Origin: a virus
Lineage: Duplodnaviria > Heunggongvirae > Uroviricota > Caudoviricetes
Reading direction: 5' to 3' (one strand)
Length of the DNA stretch: 5,601 bases
Virus record (IMG/VR): IMGVR_UViG_2547132271_000007
Numbering within the stretch: the stretch's first letter is position 1; the number at the start of each line of letters is the position of its first letter. Positions 1 through 5,500 of the stretch are shown here, in pieces. The translations under genes and the position numbers were made by a program. Below the pieces are notes generated by a model that was not told where the DNA came from, made no database searches, and saw nothing but the letters and a program-made list of their open reading frames with translations.

Positions 1-27
1 CATATCAGGAACTTGTTCGCACCTTCC

Positions 28-101
28 CTAGGAAATGATTTCCGATCTATTTAGGAAGTAACCTAGGAAGTGGTTTCCTACCTACTTAGGAAATGAGTTC
101 C
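28..101. repeat. Iteron-like array: three copies of a 16-bp imperfect palindrome YTAGGAARTGRTTTCC (28-43, 63-78, 86-101) plus a partial copy TTAGGAAGTAACC (51-63)
   Basis: Read directly. Copy 1 contains the perfect palindrome GGAAAT-G-ATTTCC; copies 2 and 3 differ at 2-3 positions. The window starts at position 1, so the array may continue upstream. Confidence 0.6.
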
Positions 102-104
102 ACC

Positions 105-168
105 AATACTATAATTAAATACTATAATTAAATAATATAAATAATATTCTTTATACTATATATATGAT
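105..168. repeat. AT-rich tract with a tandem 13-bp direct repeat ACTATAATTAAAT (108-120, 121-133); candidate DNA-unwinding element
   Basis: Read directly: almost pure A/T for about 60 bp immediately after the iteron-like array. Iterons next to an AT-rich tract is the classic origin architecture in plasmids and phages. Confidence 0.45.
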
Positions 169-180
169 CTTTTGCCTTCC

Positions 181-350
181 GGCGTTAGCTTCACTCTCTG
201 GCAAGCAGCCTTACTCCGCTACCTTTCGGGCTTCGTGGCTGGCCCGTTCCGCTCACACCGAAAGTAAAGCGTTACTTTCTTCGTGTAACTATCGTTGGCG
301 GTAACGCCCACGAAGAAATACTATTGCGCTGTGCGCAGAAGAGTAATCAC
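181..350. other. GC-rich, hairpin-dense block (candidate structured non-coding RNA or single-strand-origin-like element); strand unknown
   Basis: Local GC content is clearly above the AT-rich flanks. Hairpins seen: CGGGC(227-231)/GCCCG(242-246); TTTCTTCGTG(276-285)/CACGAAGAAA(309-318); TGCGC(326-330)/GCGCA(334-338). GCGTTA occurs at 182-187 and 269-274 with a single complement TAACGC at 302-307; CTTCGTG occurs at 231-237 and 279-285 with a single complement CACGAAG at 309-315. No ORF covers it. Confidence 0.35.
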
Positions 351-396
351 CTAACCAATCATACTGATTGCTTATGTGTAACTCTCTCTACCTCTT

Positions 397-448
397 AATT
401 CCACTTCCTACATTTAATAACTCTGTTATTCTCTGTAGTTGTGTAATT
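397..448. repeat. 52-bp direct repeat, copy 1, containing a nested bipartite palindrome CTACA-N3-AATAAC-N3-GTTATT-N3-TGTAG (408-438)
   Basis: Identical to copy 2 apart from a 1-bp indel. The inner and outer palindrome arms are exact reverse complements. Confidence 0.9.
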
Positions 449-474
449 ACTCGAAGAGAGAGCGGCTAAAGCTC

Positions 475-502
475 AATTACACTCTGCTTTCCTCGTGTAA
501 TT
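475..502. promoter_or_regulatory. Inverted repeat AATTACAC-N12-GTGTAATT between the two 52-bp repeats
   Basis: 8-bp arms are exact reverse complements. GTGTAATT is also the 3-prime end of both 52-bp repeats (441-448, 565-572), and GTGTAACT occurs at 283-290 and 376-383. Confidence 0.55.
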
Positions 503-519
503 TCACTAAGCCTCAATAC

Positions 520-572
520 AATTCCACTTCCTACATTTAATAACTCTCGTTATTCTCTGTAGTTGTGTAATT
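520..572. repeat. 53-bp direct repeat, copy 2 (one extra C versus copy 1), with nested palindrome CTACA(531-535)/AATAAC(539-544)/GTTATT(549-554)/TGTAG(558-562)
   Basis: Read directly; 123 bp downstream of copy 1. Confidence 0.9.
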
Positions 573-1096
573 GTTTTCGGTGGAAAAGCCAGAGGCGACA
601 CCGAAAGAGAATTCTGATCTTATTAATCTTATCTATCTTAGTTAATCTTCTTACTTATCTTACTTACTTTATCTACTTTATTATTAATAATAGCTTTATA
701 AGCTCTCTGTGTAGCTCTCTGACGCAAGAAACAGAGTTCAGGAAGGGAATCACCTTAGAAAAGTGTTCTTTGCGTCATAATGTGTTTTATGAAGGATTCA
801 GAGGTGTTTCATAACAGGAATGTATAGAGAATACTTTAGTTAATTAAAAATAAGGGGTCTAAATGCTTCTCTAACAGCATTAAGCAGGGTAGGGAATGGA
901 AACGCATTGCCTACATATAATAAACTCACTACAGGGCTTTACAGAGCGTTTTATAAAGTGACTCTCTATCTTATATCTACAATCACCTTTTCATATACCT
1001 AACAAATACAAAATAAGCCCCTTAAATAAGCCTCTGACGAGATAAATGGCCTCTACATAAGGGAATGTATTGCTTTTATCAAAACTTCGTTAGAAC

Positions 1097-1116
1097 GCGT
1101 TTTAGAGCGTTTTAGA
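1097..1116. repeat. Tandem 10-bp repeat GCGTTTTAGA x2; a related AGAGCGTTTTA copy lies at 943-953
   Basis: Read directly; about 100 bp upstream of the early promoter. Confidence 0.5.
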
Positions 1117-1208
1117 CAATAATGAAGAATAGCACTACACAGGAGAGCACGAATTGCTAAGAAAAAATGTAAGTGCATGAAAAAGATCAGATTTTTTATG
1201 AAAGGGTA

Positions 1209-3114: not shown

Positions 3115-3453
3115 ATGAACAAAAACACGTATGACACAATTTACTCACTAATTAATTATTATGAGGATGATTACCTCCTGCCTTTAAACCGCGCTGAACT
3201 TGAAGCATACAAAGAAAACACGCCAGCGGCACTAAATGAGGCGTTTAAACACTGGGATTTAGCTGTGAATGCCTTTGAGCACCTCTCTAAGCGTGTAGAG
3301 ATGCTCTGTAAGCGTGAGAACGCATATCTAACAGCGGATCAGCTATGGGAGCTATCAAACTGGATAGAAGGTATTGCATCGGACGTTCGCTATGTAGGAG
3401 ATGGACTTGTTGAACTAGCTCAACGCTTAGGCGCTACTATCACAGAAGAATAA
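3115..3453 (+). CDS. Hypothetical acidic protein, 112 aa
   Basis: GGAGA at 3101-3105, 9 nt before the ATG at 3115. The ORF track starts this frame at 3088, but that start overlaps the upstream gene and has no ribosome-binding site. Last gene before the second promoter. Confidence 0.6.
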   Translation: MNKNTYDTIYSLINYYEDDYLLPLNRAELEAYKENTPAALNEAFKHWDLAVNAFEHLSKRVEMLCKRENAYLTADQLWELSNWIEGIASDVRYVGDGLVELAQRLGATITEE

Positions 3454-3458
3454 AAAAA

Positions 3459-3475
3459 GCAACAAAAAAGTTGTA
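3459..3475. promoter_or_regulatory. Operator-like palindrome GCAAC-N6-GTTGTA, copy 1, just upstream of the -35 element
   Basis: CAAC/GTTG arms are exact reverse complements. The same GCAAC-N6-GTTGTA unit recurs at 3742-3758. Confidence 0.4.
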
Positions 3476-3482
3476 AAATATC

Positions 3483-3511
3483 TTGACATTTCATATATTG
3501 TATGTTAATAT
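3483..3511 (+). promoter_or_regulatory. Strong sigma-70/SigA-type promoter: TTGACA (3483-3488), 17-bp spacer, TG-extended -10 TAATAT (3506-3511)
   Basis: Perfect -35, canonical spacing, TGT immediately upstream of the -10. Faces the downstream capsid-like genes. Confidence 0.65.
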
Positions 3512-3641
3512 AATTATATAGGGGTGATTATTTTTCCTTTATTGGTTCGATATTAAAAATTCTTCCTGTCATTAAAGGGGAGTAAAATCTCCGCTCCCCG
3601 CTTCTCCTCCTTAAGTAAATACTGTGCCATTATACCTCTTT

Positions 3642-3671
3642 GTTATGCATACATCTTGGAGTATGCATAAC
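3642..3671. promoter_or_regulatory. Inverted repeat GTTATGCATA-N10-TATGCATAAC in the leader; each arm contains the palindrome TATGCATA
   Basis: 10-bp arms are exact reverse complements. A related GTTATGCAAC occurs at 3737-3746. Could be an operator or an RNA hairpin. Confidence 0.5.
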
Positions 3672-3700
3672 ATAGGGTAATTACATAGGTATGAGTTAAT

Positions 3701-3732
3701 AAAAGGCGGCTTTAAATGCTGCCTTTTATTTT
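3701..3732 (+). terminator. Intrinsic terminator-like hairpin inside the leader: stem GGCGGC(3705-3710)/GCTGCC(3718-3723) with one G-U pair, 7-nt loop, U-tract 3724-3732
   Basis: An A-tract (3701-3704) upstream can extend the stem. Lies about 190 nt downstream of the predicted start site and about 60 nt upstream of the first downstream gene. Confidence 0.5.
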
Positions 3733-3741
3733 GCCCGTTAT

Positions 3742-3758
3742 GCAACTTAAAAGTTGTA
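3742..3758. promoter_or_regulatory. Operator-like palindrome GCAAC-N6-GTTGTA, copy 2, immediately after the leader terminator
   Basis: Same unit as 3459-3475, 283 bp away. Confidence 0.4.
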
Positions 3759-3794
3759 TTTCTTACTTTAAACAAGGTAACAAGGTTTATATAA

Positions 3795-4007
3795 ATGTTG
3801 TTCTTAAATGATAAAGAGCAAATCATCAAGTATAAAGATGAAATGCTGAAAATTAATCCACAAATTACCGAAATGGTAGCTAAATACGCTGGGTGTTCTG
3901 TAGAGGAAGTAGAAAGATGTGTTGAAAAATATTTTTCTCCTTCTTCTCCGTCTACACCTTCCCTTAATGAATTAATCAAATTAAAAGCTAAGGAGATTAC
4001 TAAATGA
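3795..4007 (+). CDS. Hypothetical small protein, 70 aa
   Basis: Weak AAGG about 9 nt upstream. Its stop overlaps the next start codon (ATGA, 4004-4007), which suggests translational coupling. An alternative in-frame start is at 3843. Confidence 0.5.
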   Translation: MLFLNDKEQIIKYKDEMLKINPQITEMVAKYAGCSVEEVERCVEKYFSPSSPSTPSLNELIKLKAKEITK

Positions 4008-4366
4008 TTATTGATTTAGACACTCTGTTTCCAGTTCGAAAGACTTTCACAGATATTGTAAGTTATTGTACTGATCCGTTTGCCTCTGTAGAAAGCAAGG
4101 TTTTTGCTTCTCTTCCTGCTGATGTTGAGTGCGGAGACTTGATCACCAGCACGGGCGCTAAATATGAATCAGGAGATGATATTTATGTTGTTATGAGTGA
4201 ATTTGTAACGGCTGGAGAAAACAAGCCTGTAGATGTGCTACGTAGCAATGCTGGCCTTGTATGCATCAAAGCTGATGCCCTGAATGCTGTAAGTGAAGCA
4301 GCAAAAACAGCATTAATTAAAAAAGGCTTCCAGCTTGAAGGCTTTAATACGGTTTTCACTTCTTAA
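4004..4366 (+). CDS. Hypothetical protein, 120 aa; possible head decoration protein (lambda gpD-like) by position only
   Basis: AAGGAG at 3990-3995, 8 nt before the ATG. It sits directly upstream of the capsid-like gene and is about the size of lambda gpD (110 aa). I see no convincing sequence similarity from memory. Confidence 0.65.
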   Translation: MIIDLDTLFPVRKTFTDIVSYCTDPFASVESKVFASLPADVECGDLITSTGAKYESGDDIYVVMSEFVTAGENKPVDVLRSNAGLVCIKADALNAVSEAAKTALIKKGFQLEGFNTVFTS

Positions 4367-4384
4367 TAAAAGGAATAATAATAA

Positions 4385-5413
4385 ATGATTCTAGGTAATG
4401 ATTACGTTGATTTAGCTCCTCTGTTCCAGGCACACAGCACTAGAAACTATCTGCTCTCTACCCTTGATTTTACGGATTCTGTAGGGGTTACATCTCATAA
4501 AGTAGCTGTTTCCCAGCTTGTCGAAAGCAACGAATCTCTCTTTAACAAAGAGACAAGCCGTTTCTCTTCTGAACACAACGTTACTAAGCGAGAACAAGGT
4601 AAAGAATGGCTGATCGAAATCCCGTATTTTCTTCGTGAGGATGTGATCCGTCCCTCTGATGTTCAAGGCAAGCGTAAGCCTGGCACTGATTTTCAGGAAA
4701 CACTCACTGATATCTATGCTGACTATGTTGCTAAACACCACGTAGCGTATCAGCGTACAAAAGAGAGCGTATTGGCTGCTTCTTTGTTCTCTGGCAAAAC
4801 TTACACGCCTAAAACTGATGATGTTCTTATCGAGTGGAGCAAGCTGTTTAACGTGGTACCTATGAAAACCACTGTGAACGCTTCCAGCACTGACACCACG
4901 AAGATTTTTAAAGAATTTGATCAGATTGCTACTGACATTATCGAGAAAGCACAAAGCCAGGCGGCTGCTGTAGAGCGTATTGTTGTTTTCTGTAAACCTG
5001 AAGCCTTCTCTGCAATTCGATTCTCTGCGGGTATGGCAAACGCATTCCAGTATGTAAGCCCACTGGAAGAAGGGAACGTTGTGTATCAGCGTCGTGACCT
5101 GCTGCCAGGGGTGACAGCGTTCACTATTCCAGGAACTAACATCGATGTTGTTAAACTGGTAGATCCGCTACACCTTGCACATATGACCGCAGACGCTGTA
5201 GCTGTTCCGAAGTTTGCTAAAGGCTCTAATGTATATCAGAACATCTACGGGGCTGCTTCCAGCACCTTTGAACTGATTAATGCCGCTCCTGCTGAAGTGT
5301 ATAGCTATAGCTATGAATCTTCTCGTGGTGATGCTGTTAACGTGGTTACAGAGAATAGCCAGATGGTTGTAAACCACGGTGTAGGCTTCTCCGTTCAAAT
5401 CACTGTTAAATAA
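4385..5413 (+). CDS. Probable major capsid protein, 342 aa, lambda gpE-like family (tentative)
   Basis: Longest ORF in the window, rich in V/A/S/T, followed by a strong terminator. Against my recalled lambda gpE sequence (341 aa) there are three colinear local matches: SLFSGKTYTPKTDD vs AVLKGKYTMTGE; IVVFCKPEAFSAIRFS vs IIVFDPKGWALFRSF; LLPGVTAFTIPG vs FLPDNTMVLGN. Family assignment is unverified. Confidence 0.8.
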   Translation: MILGNDYVDLAPLFQAHSTRNYLLSTLDFTDSVGVTSHKVAVSQLVESNESLFNKETSRFSSEHNVTKREQGKEWLIEIPYFLREDVIRPSDVQGKRKPGTDFQETLTDIYADYVAKHHVAYQRTKESVLAASLFSGKTYTPKTDDVLIEWSKLFNVVPMKTTVNASSTDTTKIFKEFDQIATDIIEKAQSQAAAVERIVVFCKPEAFSAIRFSAGMANAFQYVSPLEEGNVVYQRRDLLPGVTAFTIPGTNIDVVKLVDPLHLAHMTADAVAVPKFAKGSNVYQNIYGAASSTFELINAAPAEVYSYSYESSRGDAVNVVTENSQMVVNHGVGFSVQITVK

Positions 5414-5431
5414 TATTTTAACGTGTAATAG

Positions 5432-5477
5432 AGGCGTGGCGTGAATAACACGCTTCGCCTTTTTTTATTTATTTTTT
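5432..5477 (+). terminator. Strong Rho-independent terminator: 12-bp stem AGGCGTGGCGTG/CACGCTTCGCCT (one mismatch, one G-U), loop AATAA, U-tract TTTTTTATTTATTTTTT
   Basis: Read directly; begins 19 nt after the capsid-like stop codon. Confidence 0.8.
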
Positions 5478-5500
5478 AAATTTTGAGAGGTGATTAAAAT

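Follow-up and report, generated by a model that had tools for sequence, protein, structure and literature searches.

Introduction

Precedents for promoter-proximal antitermination are provided by the PR'-tR'-Q system of phage lambda and by AlpA (PMC7547250, PMC9371919). In the Stx phages, the short PR'-tR' RNA is processed to StxS, a small RNA (sRNA) that binds Hfq (PMC7547250); a short RNA with a function of its own can therefore coexist with antitermination control. AlpA, as known from Pseudomonas alpBCDE and from alpA of the Gram-negative PICI, is a small mobile-element regulator with which RNA polymerase bypasses an intrinsic terminator lying downstream of the promoter (PMC7969949, PMC9371919). 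For its action, the promoter must carry a binding element between the -35 and -10 hexamers as well as, at -1 to +5, a pause sequence that resembles a -10 element (PMC9371919). Here we describe an analysis of a 5,601-nt stretch of DNA, the IMG/VR record IMGVR_UViG_2547132271_000007 (hereafter referred to as the window), and in particular of the intergenic region, positions 3454 to 3794, that lies ahead of its capsid genes. This region contains a promoter, a long structured leader and an intrinsic terminator, and a similar but smaller cassette heads the early operon. We estimate at about 50% the probability that it constitutes a terminator-gated late operon, which would need a trans-acting, processive antitermination activity and would yield an RNA of ~215 nt as its default product.

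Results

The late promoter is located on the plus strand at 3483 to 3511. It is of the sigma-70 type and consists of TTGACA (3483-3488), a 17-nt spacer and TAATAT (3506-3511), with the TGT that precedes the -10 element providing an extended -10 TG. The near-consensus promoter of the original prediction is borne out by its score, 10/12, by its rarity and by its conservation. Indeed, the window holds only two sites that score at least 10/12 and carry the TG, both of them on the plus strand and heading the two operons, whereas dinucleotide shuffles give 0.13 such sites, with two or more in 1% of the shuffles. The leader was collected in 34 distinct copies of the same subtype, the sources being genomes, viral contigs and metagenomes. 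All of these share one -35 hexamer, and only two depart from the -10 hexamer, by a single substitution each (TAGTAT in L047 and TAACAT in L060). The spacer has three variable positions among these copies and is unrelated between subtypes. Several -10-like hexamers overlap at 3506-3520 (TAATAT, TATAAT, AATTAT and TATATA), and GATTAT is found at about +9. Transcription would be expected to start near 3518, giving a leader of ~277 nt ahead of the first capsid-module gene at 3795, in keeping with the 275 nt originally claimed.

The terminator is positioned at 3698 to 3736 on the plus strand. Its 13-bp stem, with a GC-rich core of 9 bp (3702-3710 paired with 3718-3726), is closed by a 7-nt loop and followed by the U-tract UUUUAUUUUG. 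The sequence of 3698-3730 is AAUAAAAGGCGGC-UUUAAAU-GCUGCCUUUUAUU, then UUUG, and 8 of 9 nt in the tract are U. The hairpin thus displays the GC-rich stem, short loop and 3' U-tract of an intrinsic terminator, on the coding strand and within an intergenic region. Its calculated energy is -18.1 kcal/mol (range -13 to -18) with a z score of -4.8, and its pairing probability within the full leader is 1.0. The sole competing helix, 6 bp between CCGCUU (3598-3603) and AGGCGG (3704-3709), would have to form across 100 nt. In the 34 copies the 9-bp core, AAAGGCGGC/GCUGCCUUU, is invariant and the loop varies between U and C; a 17-nt deletion found in 13 of them strips the four outer A-U pairs from the extended stem. 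The terminator-like hairpin that had been proposed from this DNA therefore stands. Note that a simple terminator scanner overlooked the site, having extended the stem into the U-tract. A custom scan with a free energy (dG) cut-off of -10 or lower detected it, and at that threshold exactly three plus-strand terminators are present in the window, at 1288-1318, 3702-3726 and 5425-5468.

A minus-strand antisense promoter at 3836-3808, for which the terminator would act bidirectionally, was considered and rejected given that its score (9/12) is at the chance level. Termination on the minus strand would need an A-tract, which is lost in 13 of the 34 copies and absent from other subtypes, and the idea of an antisense RNA was dropped.

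The arrangement of promoter and terminator is maintained throughout the family. In a set of 93 distinct leaders, a promoter scoring at least 10/13 occurs in 89, the TG in 71, and a hairpin with a U-tract no more than 170 nt from the ATG of the first capsid-module gene in 91. The intergenic region before the ~70-aa gene is long in every relative, namely 340 to 1,100 nt, with leaders of 0.27 to 1.2 kb. Its layout is constant across divergent subtypes: TTGACA-N17-TAnnAT with TGT directly follows the upstream gene, a G-run lies ~8 nt past the -10 element, and thereafter come many hairpins and one to three terminators composed of a hairpin and a U-tract, the last of which is situated 37-132 nt ahead of the ATG in all 11 subtypes. 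The terminator sequences themselves are unrelated between subtypes, as exemplified by AAAGGCGGC.., AAAGCCGG.., AGGGGCUUAAUGGCCCCU, GGCGACUUCGGUCGCC and AUGCCCUG..., such that what is conserved is a function at that place rather than a sequence. Conservation of the hairpins in related elements had been named beforehand as a test, and the architecture is indeed kept in all of the divergent subtypes.

In four subtypes (L006, L007, L036 and L010) the distance from the terminator hairpin to the ATG is just 37-56 nt, which leaves no space for both an independent sigma-70 promoter and a ribosome-binding site. The capsid mRNA must accordingly start upstream and read through. The logic put forward in the original prediction, in which a promoter gives a short default RNA and the capsid genes need read-through, is thus upheld by the conservation of both signals across the family.

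The early operon of the window is preceded by a sister cassette at 1209 to 1330 on the plus strand. It comprises a promoter, TTGACA-17-AATAAT with the TG (1209-1237), a leader of ~85 nt and a terminator hairpin (1288-1318) with a U-tract, which ends 9 nt before the Shine-Dalgarno sequence at 1339; the ATG follows at 1351. This terminator is kept across subtypes, and three of its eight stem pairs show compensatory changes among 14 family sequences. A third intrinsic terminator, again on the plus strand, is found after the major capsid gene at 5425 to 5468 (-20 kcal/mol, z -5.4), ~33 nt before the next ATG at ~5501. Its position is conserved in other subtypes, and the distal genes, which encode a 67-aa, a 609-aa and a Dit-like protein, would hence also depend on read-through. 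The late-leader and post-capsid terminators are each followed, at a distance of 20-35 nt, by the next ribosome-binding site or ATG. Three co-oriented, serial terminators without room for a promoter behind each are what would be expected of a processively antiterminated polymerase, and the two or three terminators within the late leader of several subtypes likewise fit processive antitermination rather than attenuation at a single site.

The RNA between promoter and terminator is highly structured. When folded as a whole, the 223-nt RNA has a z score of -5.0. Its 5' stem-loop domain, at 3518-3569 on the plus strand, is formed by pairing of the G-run AUAGGGG with UUCCUGU; the single frequent stem substitution among the 34 copies, C to U, yields a G.U pair, and pairing of the initial G-run with a CU-rich stretch is also observed in other subtypes. 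There follows at 3577-3599 a hairpin, GGGGAGU/GCUCCCC (-12.2 kcal/mol, z -2.8), whose stem is invariant in the 34 copies and in which the loop length alone varies. This hairpin had been thought to possess two alternative pairings. Both can be formed, the shorter being GGAG with CUCC, but the long pairing accounts for 84% of the ensemble, and there is no sign of a switch. Next is a C/U-rich, G-poor linker, CUUCUCCUCCUU..., at 3600-3635, the length of which differs between copies and which could act as a Rho-utilization-like tract. A long hairpin then occupies 3636-3677, with a perfect 12-bp stem (3641-3652 with 3661-3672) and four outer pairs (-20.6 kcal/mol, z -7.2). The palindrome anticipated here is therefore present, its perfect arms being 12 bp rather than 10 bp in length (alternatively, arms of 15 nt matching at 93%). 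In 15 of the 34 copies an A to G change within the 12-bp stem converts U-A to U.G, a pattern that is tolerated by an RNA helix and not by a DNA palindrome; this is suggestive rather than decisive.

Searches for known elements in the leader gave little. A covariance-model search against Rfam had been recommended, and it returned nothing at the gathering threshold: in a scan of the window at E ≤ 10, the best match in the leader was STnc250, which reached 18.6 bits (E 3.8) where the threshold is 42, and scans of three related loci (L003, L006 and L007) revealed tRNAs only. A BLAST search of the leader in distant mode against 50,697 phage genomes gave only short, promoter-like matches. No RfaH ops element and no lambda nut boxA/boxB was seen by visual inspection. 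With respect to a leader peptide, there are just an 11-codon open reading frame (ORF) in the palindrome and a 31-codon ORF that begins in the terminator loop, both without a ribosome-binding site. An inverted-repeat scan of the window produced only matches of 13-27 nt at the chance level, and complementarities to the leader of at least 13 nt were likewise at chance. The window leader displays no significant similarity, past the promoter and 5' end, to the leaders found in two divergent E. coli subtypes, which are ~1 kb long. Those leaders share with one another an 88-nt block (L006 8426-8512 and L007 8386-8472, 75% identical) that contains small GC hairpins and lies between their first and last terminators; it does not occur in the window subtype and has no match in Rfam.

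Within the window subtype, 6.2% of the leader columns are variable, compared with 9-24% in the adjoining genes, a difference that speaks for purifying selection on the leader. Insertions and deletions among the 34 copies are confined to linkers, namely after the C/U-rich tract, before the palindrome and in the 17-nt block directly before the terminator. The six RNA helices and the upstream inverted repeat described below comprise 70 pairs, of which 99.8% of the alignment cells are paired and none shows a double change, so that in this subtype conservation of structure is indistinguishable from that of sequence. Nine of the 11 kinds of stem substitution are transitions that preserve pairing via G.U. 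A clearer signal is provided by the leader of the Enterobacter/Citrobacter type, represented by 17 distinct sequences that are 57-82% identical. RNAalifold predicts 22 pairs for it, 11 of them with compensatory double changes, and its 5' hairpin presents an invariant loop, UCGAAUCAC, atop a covarying stem. On the basis of these compensatory changes, the leaders appear to be structured RNAs under selection.

The promoter-to-terminator unit is bracketed by two copies of an inverted repeat, CAAC-N6-GTTG, on the plus strand. The first, at 3460-3473 (full motif GCAACAAAAAAGTTGTA, 3459-3475), is 10 nt upstream of the -35 hexamer. The second, at 3743-3756, lies 10 nt after the terminator and is part of a hairpin or inverted repeat, AUGCAACUU-AA-AAGUUGUAU, that extends from 3740 to 3759. 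The two copies are 283 bp apart, or ~27 helical turns. The motif appears exactly twice in the window (expected 0.07; two or more in none of 200 shuffles), and in the 18-kb locus L003 it is limited to these same two places. The upstream copy is almost invariant in the 34 leaders; a variant, GCAAT..GTTGC, retains RNA-type pairing via a wobble. In the hairpin at 3740-3759, a G to A change in four of the 34 copies turns a G.U pair into A-U. The pair of repeats could serve as operators, possibly with looping, or as two RNA hairpins, and the one natural variant favors RNA pairing. Other subtypes carry palindromes or direct repeats of their own in the interval that separates the last terminator from the ATG. 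A second TCGAATCAC motif, present in some loci at a distance of 1 kb upstream, was dismissed because it falls inside a coding region. Beyond the second repeat, at 3771-3797 on the plus strand, lies a tandem AACAAGGT AACAAGGT followed by the ATG (3795) of the 70-aa gene, with the Shine-Dalgarno sequence AAGG at 3782-3785. From 3690 to 3800 the 34 copies are identical but for single-base variants at three places, all of them rare.

The window belongs to an island in the chromosome of E. coli. Of 5,426 complete E. coli genomes, 1,082 match some portion of it, and 186 cover at least 80% at ~94-96% identity; the capsid module is present in 397 and the leader under study in 307. In annotated genomes the island measures ~12 kb (L003 2951-15220) and is located between a tRNA gene, either that for tRNA-Thr beside proA or that for tRNA-Gly beside actS, and a tyrosine integrase gene; in E. 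coli O26:H11 11368 it occupies ~321.4-333.7 kb of NC_013361. It begins with a repeat-rich, ORF-poor stretch, followed by small early genes and a Rep-like HTH_36 protein (1681-2280), for which the PHROG matches are to replication-initiation proteins. Next in order are the genes for the 92-, 136- and 112-aa proteins, followed by the intergenic region under study and by the capsid module on the plus strand (3795-5413). This module encodes two small proteins, of 70 aa (3795-4007) and 120 aa (4004-4366), and then the major capsid protein of 342 aa (4385-5413). The latter is of the lambda E type (Pfam Phage_cap_E, 2.3e-15; PHROG 29 major head protein, 2e-15). Past the end of the window are the genes for the 67-aa and 609-aa proteins and usually also that for the Dit-like tail protein. 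The gene order of the capsid module is kept in all related loci, and relatives of the capsid protein with 37-77% identity are encoded by islands that share this order in Klebsiella, Enterobacter, Citrobacter, Cronobacter, Dryocola, Serratia and Sodalis. A scan of genome contigs with the capsid protein led to a single locus, and the relatives were taken from scans of viral and metagenome sequences and from exact-protein look-ups. No terminase, portal or protease was recognizable among the island proteins in Pfam and PHROG scans, the only virion genes recognized being Phage_cap_E and Dit_like; the 609-aa protein was assigned to no family in the same two databases. A description of this island family was not found in a literature search.

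The repeat-rich stretch is long (window 1-1200; L003 2951-6720) and contains few ORFs. In the window it includes three copies of a ~37-nt repeat at 7-101 and a 52-nt duplicate (397-448 and 520-572); in L003, a 22-bp unit repeated 5.3 times (5373-5489) is embedded in 3.7 kb with one annotated ORF of 52 aa. It probably represents an iteron origin for the Rep-like protein, though an unusually large one. In several strains IS5 or IS3 elements interrupt the island (L001 18648-19628; L005 7733-8946; H89, H108 and H113), either in the 609-aa gene, in the capsid module or in place of the 92-, 136- and 112-aa genes, and many island copies are therefore decaying.

Matches between the window and phage genomes at the DNA level are limited to two short pieces of early genes. 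Positions 1543-1709, within a 62-aa gene of the ribbon-helix-helix type, and 1776-2036, which encode an N-terminal portion of the Rep-like protein, have counterparts of 96-99% identity among the early-region genes of phi92-like phages, namely the virulent Justusliebigvirus muut, inny, Mt1B1_P17, PaulScherrer and VEcB (matches at L014 3001-3261 and L015 3001-3167). This similarity indicates recent exchange and makes the phi92-like phages candidates for the role of helper or of antagonist.

The 136-aa and 112-aa proteins encoded just upstream of the promoter had been put forward as candidate regulators, a suggestion that is possible but has found no support. Neither resembles Q, RinA, ArpU or AlpA, and neither is universal in the family. 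The 112-aa protein, which is acidic, is modeled as a bundle of three helices (pLDDT 89) whose neighbors are all generic helical bundles; being 8-33% identical to its positional counterparts, it is barely conserved. The 60-aa first early protein (1351-1533), conserved in four subtypes, gave a sub-threshold match to the NCBIfam entry NF058537, "RNA-binding regulator" (15.5 bits where the cut-off is 100; E 0.016), which is probably due to chance, although the protein may be regarded as a candidate antiterminator.

Discussion

According to the interpretation that we favor, the host RNA polymerase with sigma-70 would initiate constitutively near 3518 and transcribe the structured, untranslated leader. 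By default it would stop at the terminator (3698-3736, with the end at 3732-3736) and release an RNA of ~215 nt. A trans-acting factor would render the polymerase terminator-resistant, thereby permitting expression of the capsid genes. The same factor would carry the enzyme past the post-capsid terminator into the 67-aa, 609-aa and Dit-like genes and would probably open the identically built early operon as well. It might be a product of a helper phage, in which case read-through would serve as the island's helper sensor, or it might be an unrecognized small protein of the island. Given that the early operon is blocked alike and must fire first, a helper-phage source is more plausible than the island, although leaky expression of an island protein is possible.

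A broader proposal can be offered only tentatively, and we doubt that it will hold in full. The islands may form a repressor-less family of satellites in which the promoters are constitutive and leader terminators lock every operon, and in which an antitermination activity or a polymerase modification supplied by the helper, with phi92-like phages and their nearly identical early-gene pieces as candidates, wakes the island. The late leader would then be a new class of RNA that recruits or senses that activity, and the resting ~215-nt RNA might function in immunity or interference.

Several observations weigh against terminator gating by a trans-acting factor. No protein of the window matches the Q, AlpA, RinA, ArpU, Ogr/Delta or N families in Pfam, PHROGs or NCBIfam, and the structure models of the 136-aa and 112-aa proteins have no informative structural neighbors. 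A pause element or factor-binding site of the Q/AlpA type could not be established at the late promoter; a TATA-GGG motif recurs across subtypes, and no -10-like hexamer is consistently placed. The terminator could be leaky and merely set the level of expression. Finally, the CAAC-N6-GTTG pair hints at an additional layer of control, at the level of the DNA, that lies outside of the model.

If the terminator is leaky, the region would contain no switch at all but rather an attenuator, or an insulator against read-in from the early operon, that ensures a low basal level of capsid protein, with induction arising from promoter activity or from copy number after excision and replication. There is no terminator between the 112-aa gene (stop at 3453) and the late promoter, and early transcripts would otherwise reach the capsid genes. 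In phages, terminators positioned after major capsid genes commonly tune stoichiometry, and the Rep-like protein together with the iteron-like repeats suggests that copy number could rise on induction. Yet the terminator is strong by every sequence criterion, with a stem of 9-13 bp and 8 U in 9 nt, and a consensus promoter combined with a leaky terminator would mean constitutive synthesis of capsid protein from the chromosome. Moreover, the early operon, which fires first, has the same block only 20 nt before its ribosome-binding site. We regard a leaky attenuator as quite improbable. A riboswitch-like or attenuator switch acting in cis, and built either on the GGGGAG/CUCC/CUCCCC hairpin or on the pairing of CCGCUU (3598-3603) with AGGCGG (3704-3709), is less credible still. 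Alternative pairings do exist in the sequence, and until the 3' arm of the terminator has been transcribed, CCGCUU is available as a partner for its 5' arm. The competing helix, however, amounts to 6 bp across 100 nt against a local hairpin of -13 to -18 kcal/mol with a probability of 1.0, and natural variants have lost the 17 nt before the terminator, or the UU of CCGCUU, while remaining otherwise unchanged; a terminator of that probability, and variants that delete the flanks of the competing helix, make such an internal switch unlikely. Likewise, some subtypes have two or three terminators in series, and no riboswitch or leader family in Rfam was matched.

The remaining explanations place the function in the RNA itself. 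The ~215-nt transcript may be a functional, trans-acting sRNA that the resident island makes constitutively, involved for example in immunity, in control of island or helper genes, or in host fitness, and this could be its sole role or one exerted alongside antitermination; we consider this unlikely. The unit from promoter to terminator has the size and shape of an sRNA gene, a long U-tail and a z score of -5.0, and it is better conserved than the adjoining genes. The divergent subtype with covarying helices and the invariant loop UCGAAUCAC is in accord with such a role, there is a precedent in StxS, the Hfq-binding product of the short PR'-tR' transcript (PMC7547250), and the C/U-rich tracts could conceivably pair with Shine-Dalgarno sequences. 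On the other hand, no conserved single-stranded seed is evident, and the C/U-rich linker is the segment most prone to insertions and deletions. The primary sequence is not kept between subtypes, where the length ranges from 0.27 to 1.2 kb, complementarities of at least 13 nt within the window are at the chance level, and there is neither a phage-genome match nor an Rfam family. An sRNA also leaves transcription of the capsid genes unexplained where a second promoter has no room. Alternatively, the leader RNA may be a cis-acting antitermination device comparable to HK022 put or conAn2, with regulation at the promoter, perhaps by a protein bound to the CAAC-N6-GTTG sites. This, too, we find rather doubtful. 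In its favor are the long, structured and covarying leader directly behind a conserved promoter, the several terminators downstream to be bypassed, the lack of a recognizable protein antiterminator and the inverted repeats that bracket the cassette 283 bp (~27 helical turns) apart; in conAn, similarly, a long operon is headed by a large RNA element together with a small protein (PMC8191782). Against it, the leader bears no sequence or Rfam similarity to known antiterminator RNAs, and the early leader, of only ~85 nt and of different sequence, nevertheless follows the same terminator logic. No repressor is recognizable, and the natural variant of the upstream repeat alters a base of the inner half-site such that RNA pairing is retained and a DNA site would be weakened.

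Should all operons of the island be opened by terminator read-through, they would provide a compact, testable example of how a satellite could sense its helper during transcription elongation. The leader appears to be a new structured RNA with clear covariation in some subtypes, and the short RNA is a candidate regulatory RNA in many pathogenic lineages of E. coli, including O26:H11, avian pathogenic E. coli (APEC) O1 and those related to ST131. Fusion of the promoter, leader and terminator to a reporter would constitute a direct screen for the antiterminator and hence for the helper phage. While the principle of regulation is a known one, novelty lies in the RNA, the island family and the missing antiterminator, which are widespread and open to direct testing.

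Of the known systems, late control in the lambdoid phages, PR'-tR'-Q with its 6S or StxS RNA, is similar in having a constitutive sigma-70 promoter, a terminator ~200 nt further on, structural genes behind it and a short default RNA. Additional terminators within the operon are likewise shared, and the serial-terminator logic is that seen with lambda N and Q. The island differs in that family scans reveal no Q-family gene, in agreement with the original prediction that no Q-, RinA- or ArpU-like protein would be recognizable. In addition, its leader is larger and more structured, reaching ~1 kb in some subtypes, the ~12-kb island is devoid of recognizable packaging genes, and its early operon employs the same device. 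With both Q and AlpA, the locus has in common a constitutive sigma-70 promoter followed within a few hundred nucleotides by an intrinsic terminator, all upstream of the regulated genes. No known antiterminator protein, neither Phage_AlpA nor any helix-turn-helix (HTH) antiterminator, was recognized among the window proteins, and whereas AlpA binds between the -35 and -10 hexamers, the spacer here is the only variable part of the promoter.

Immunity of satellite P4 involves no protein repressor; rather, transcripts from a constitutive promoter are terminated while still short, and regulation is exerted by the leader RNA. The constitutive promoter and the short terminated transcripts, which here are predicted, are thus features that the P4 PLE leader with its CI RNA has in common with the present locus. 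P4, however, needs complementarity between seqA or seqC and seqB, whereas here complementarity is at the chance level, the Rfam C4 and CI families are unmatched, and the CAAC-N6-GTTG copies are self-complementary palindromes rather than partners of a leader segment. The terminators of the island, furthermore, are self-sufficient intrinsic ones. HK022 put and the conAn system of the pLS20-like plasmids resemble the late leader in that a large structured RNA heads a long mobile-element operon with several terminators thereafter (PMC8191782). They differ from it in lacking sequence or structural homology to it, and no conAn1-like protein is recognizable in the island. By the comparisons made, the late leader region belongs to none of these regulatory families.

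Finally, with respect to the satellite families (P4-like, PICI, capsid-forming PICI, PLE and PICMI), the island is comparable in its size of ~12 kb, its tyrosine integrase by a tRNA gene, its replication module, its few virion genes and its wide distribution in the Enterobacterales. Of the characteristic P4 functions, no sid, psu, delta or alpha primase-helicase families were detected in the Pfam and PHROG scans, and of those that define the capsid-forming PICI (terminase, portal, protease, connector and alpA) none was found, with only Phage_cap_E and Dit_like being recognized. The island fits the definition of none of these five families and is apparently undescribed, and the region that precedes its capsid genes is best filed as a new form of terminator-gated late control.

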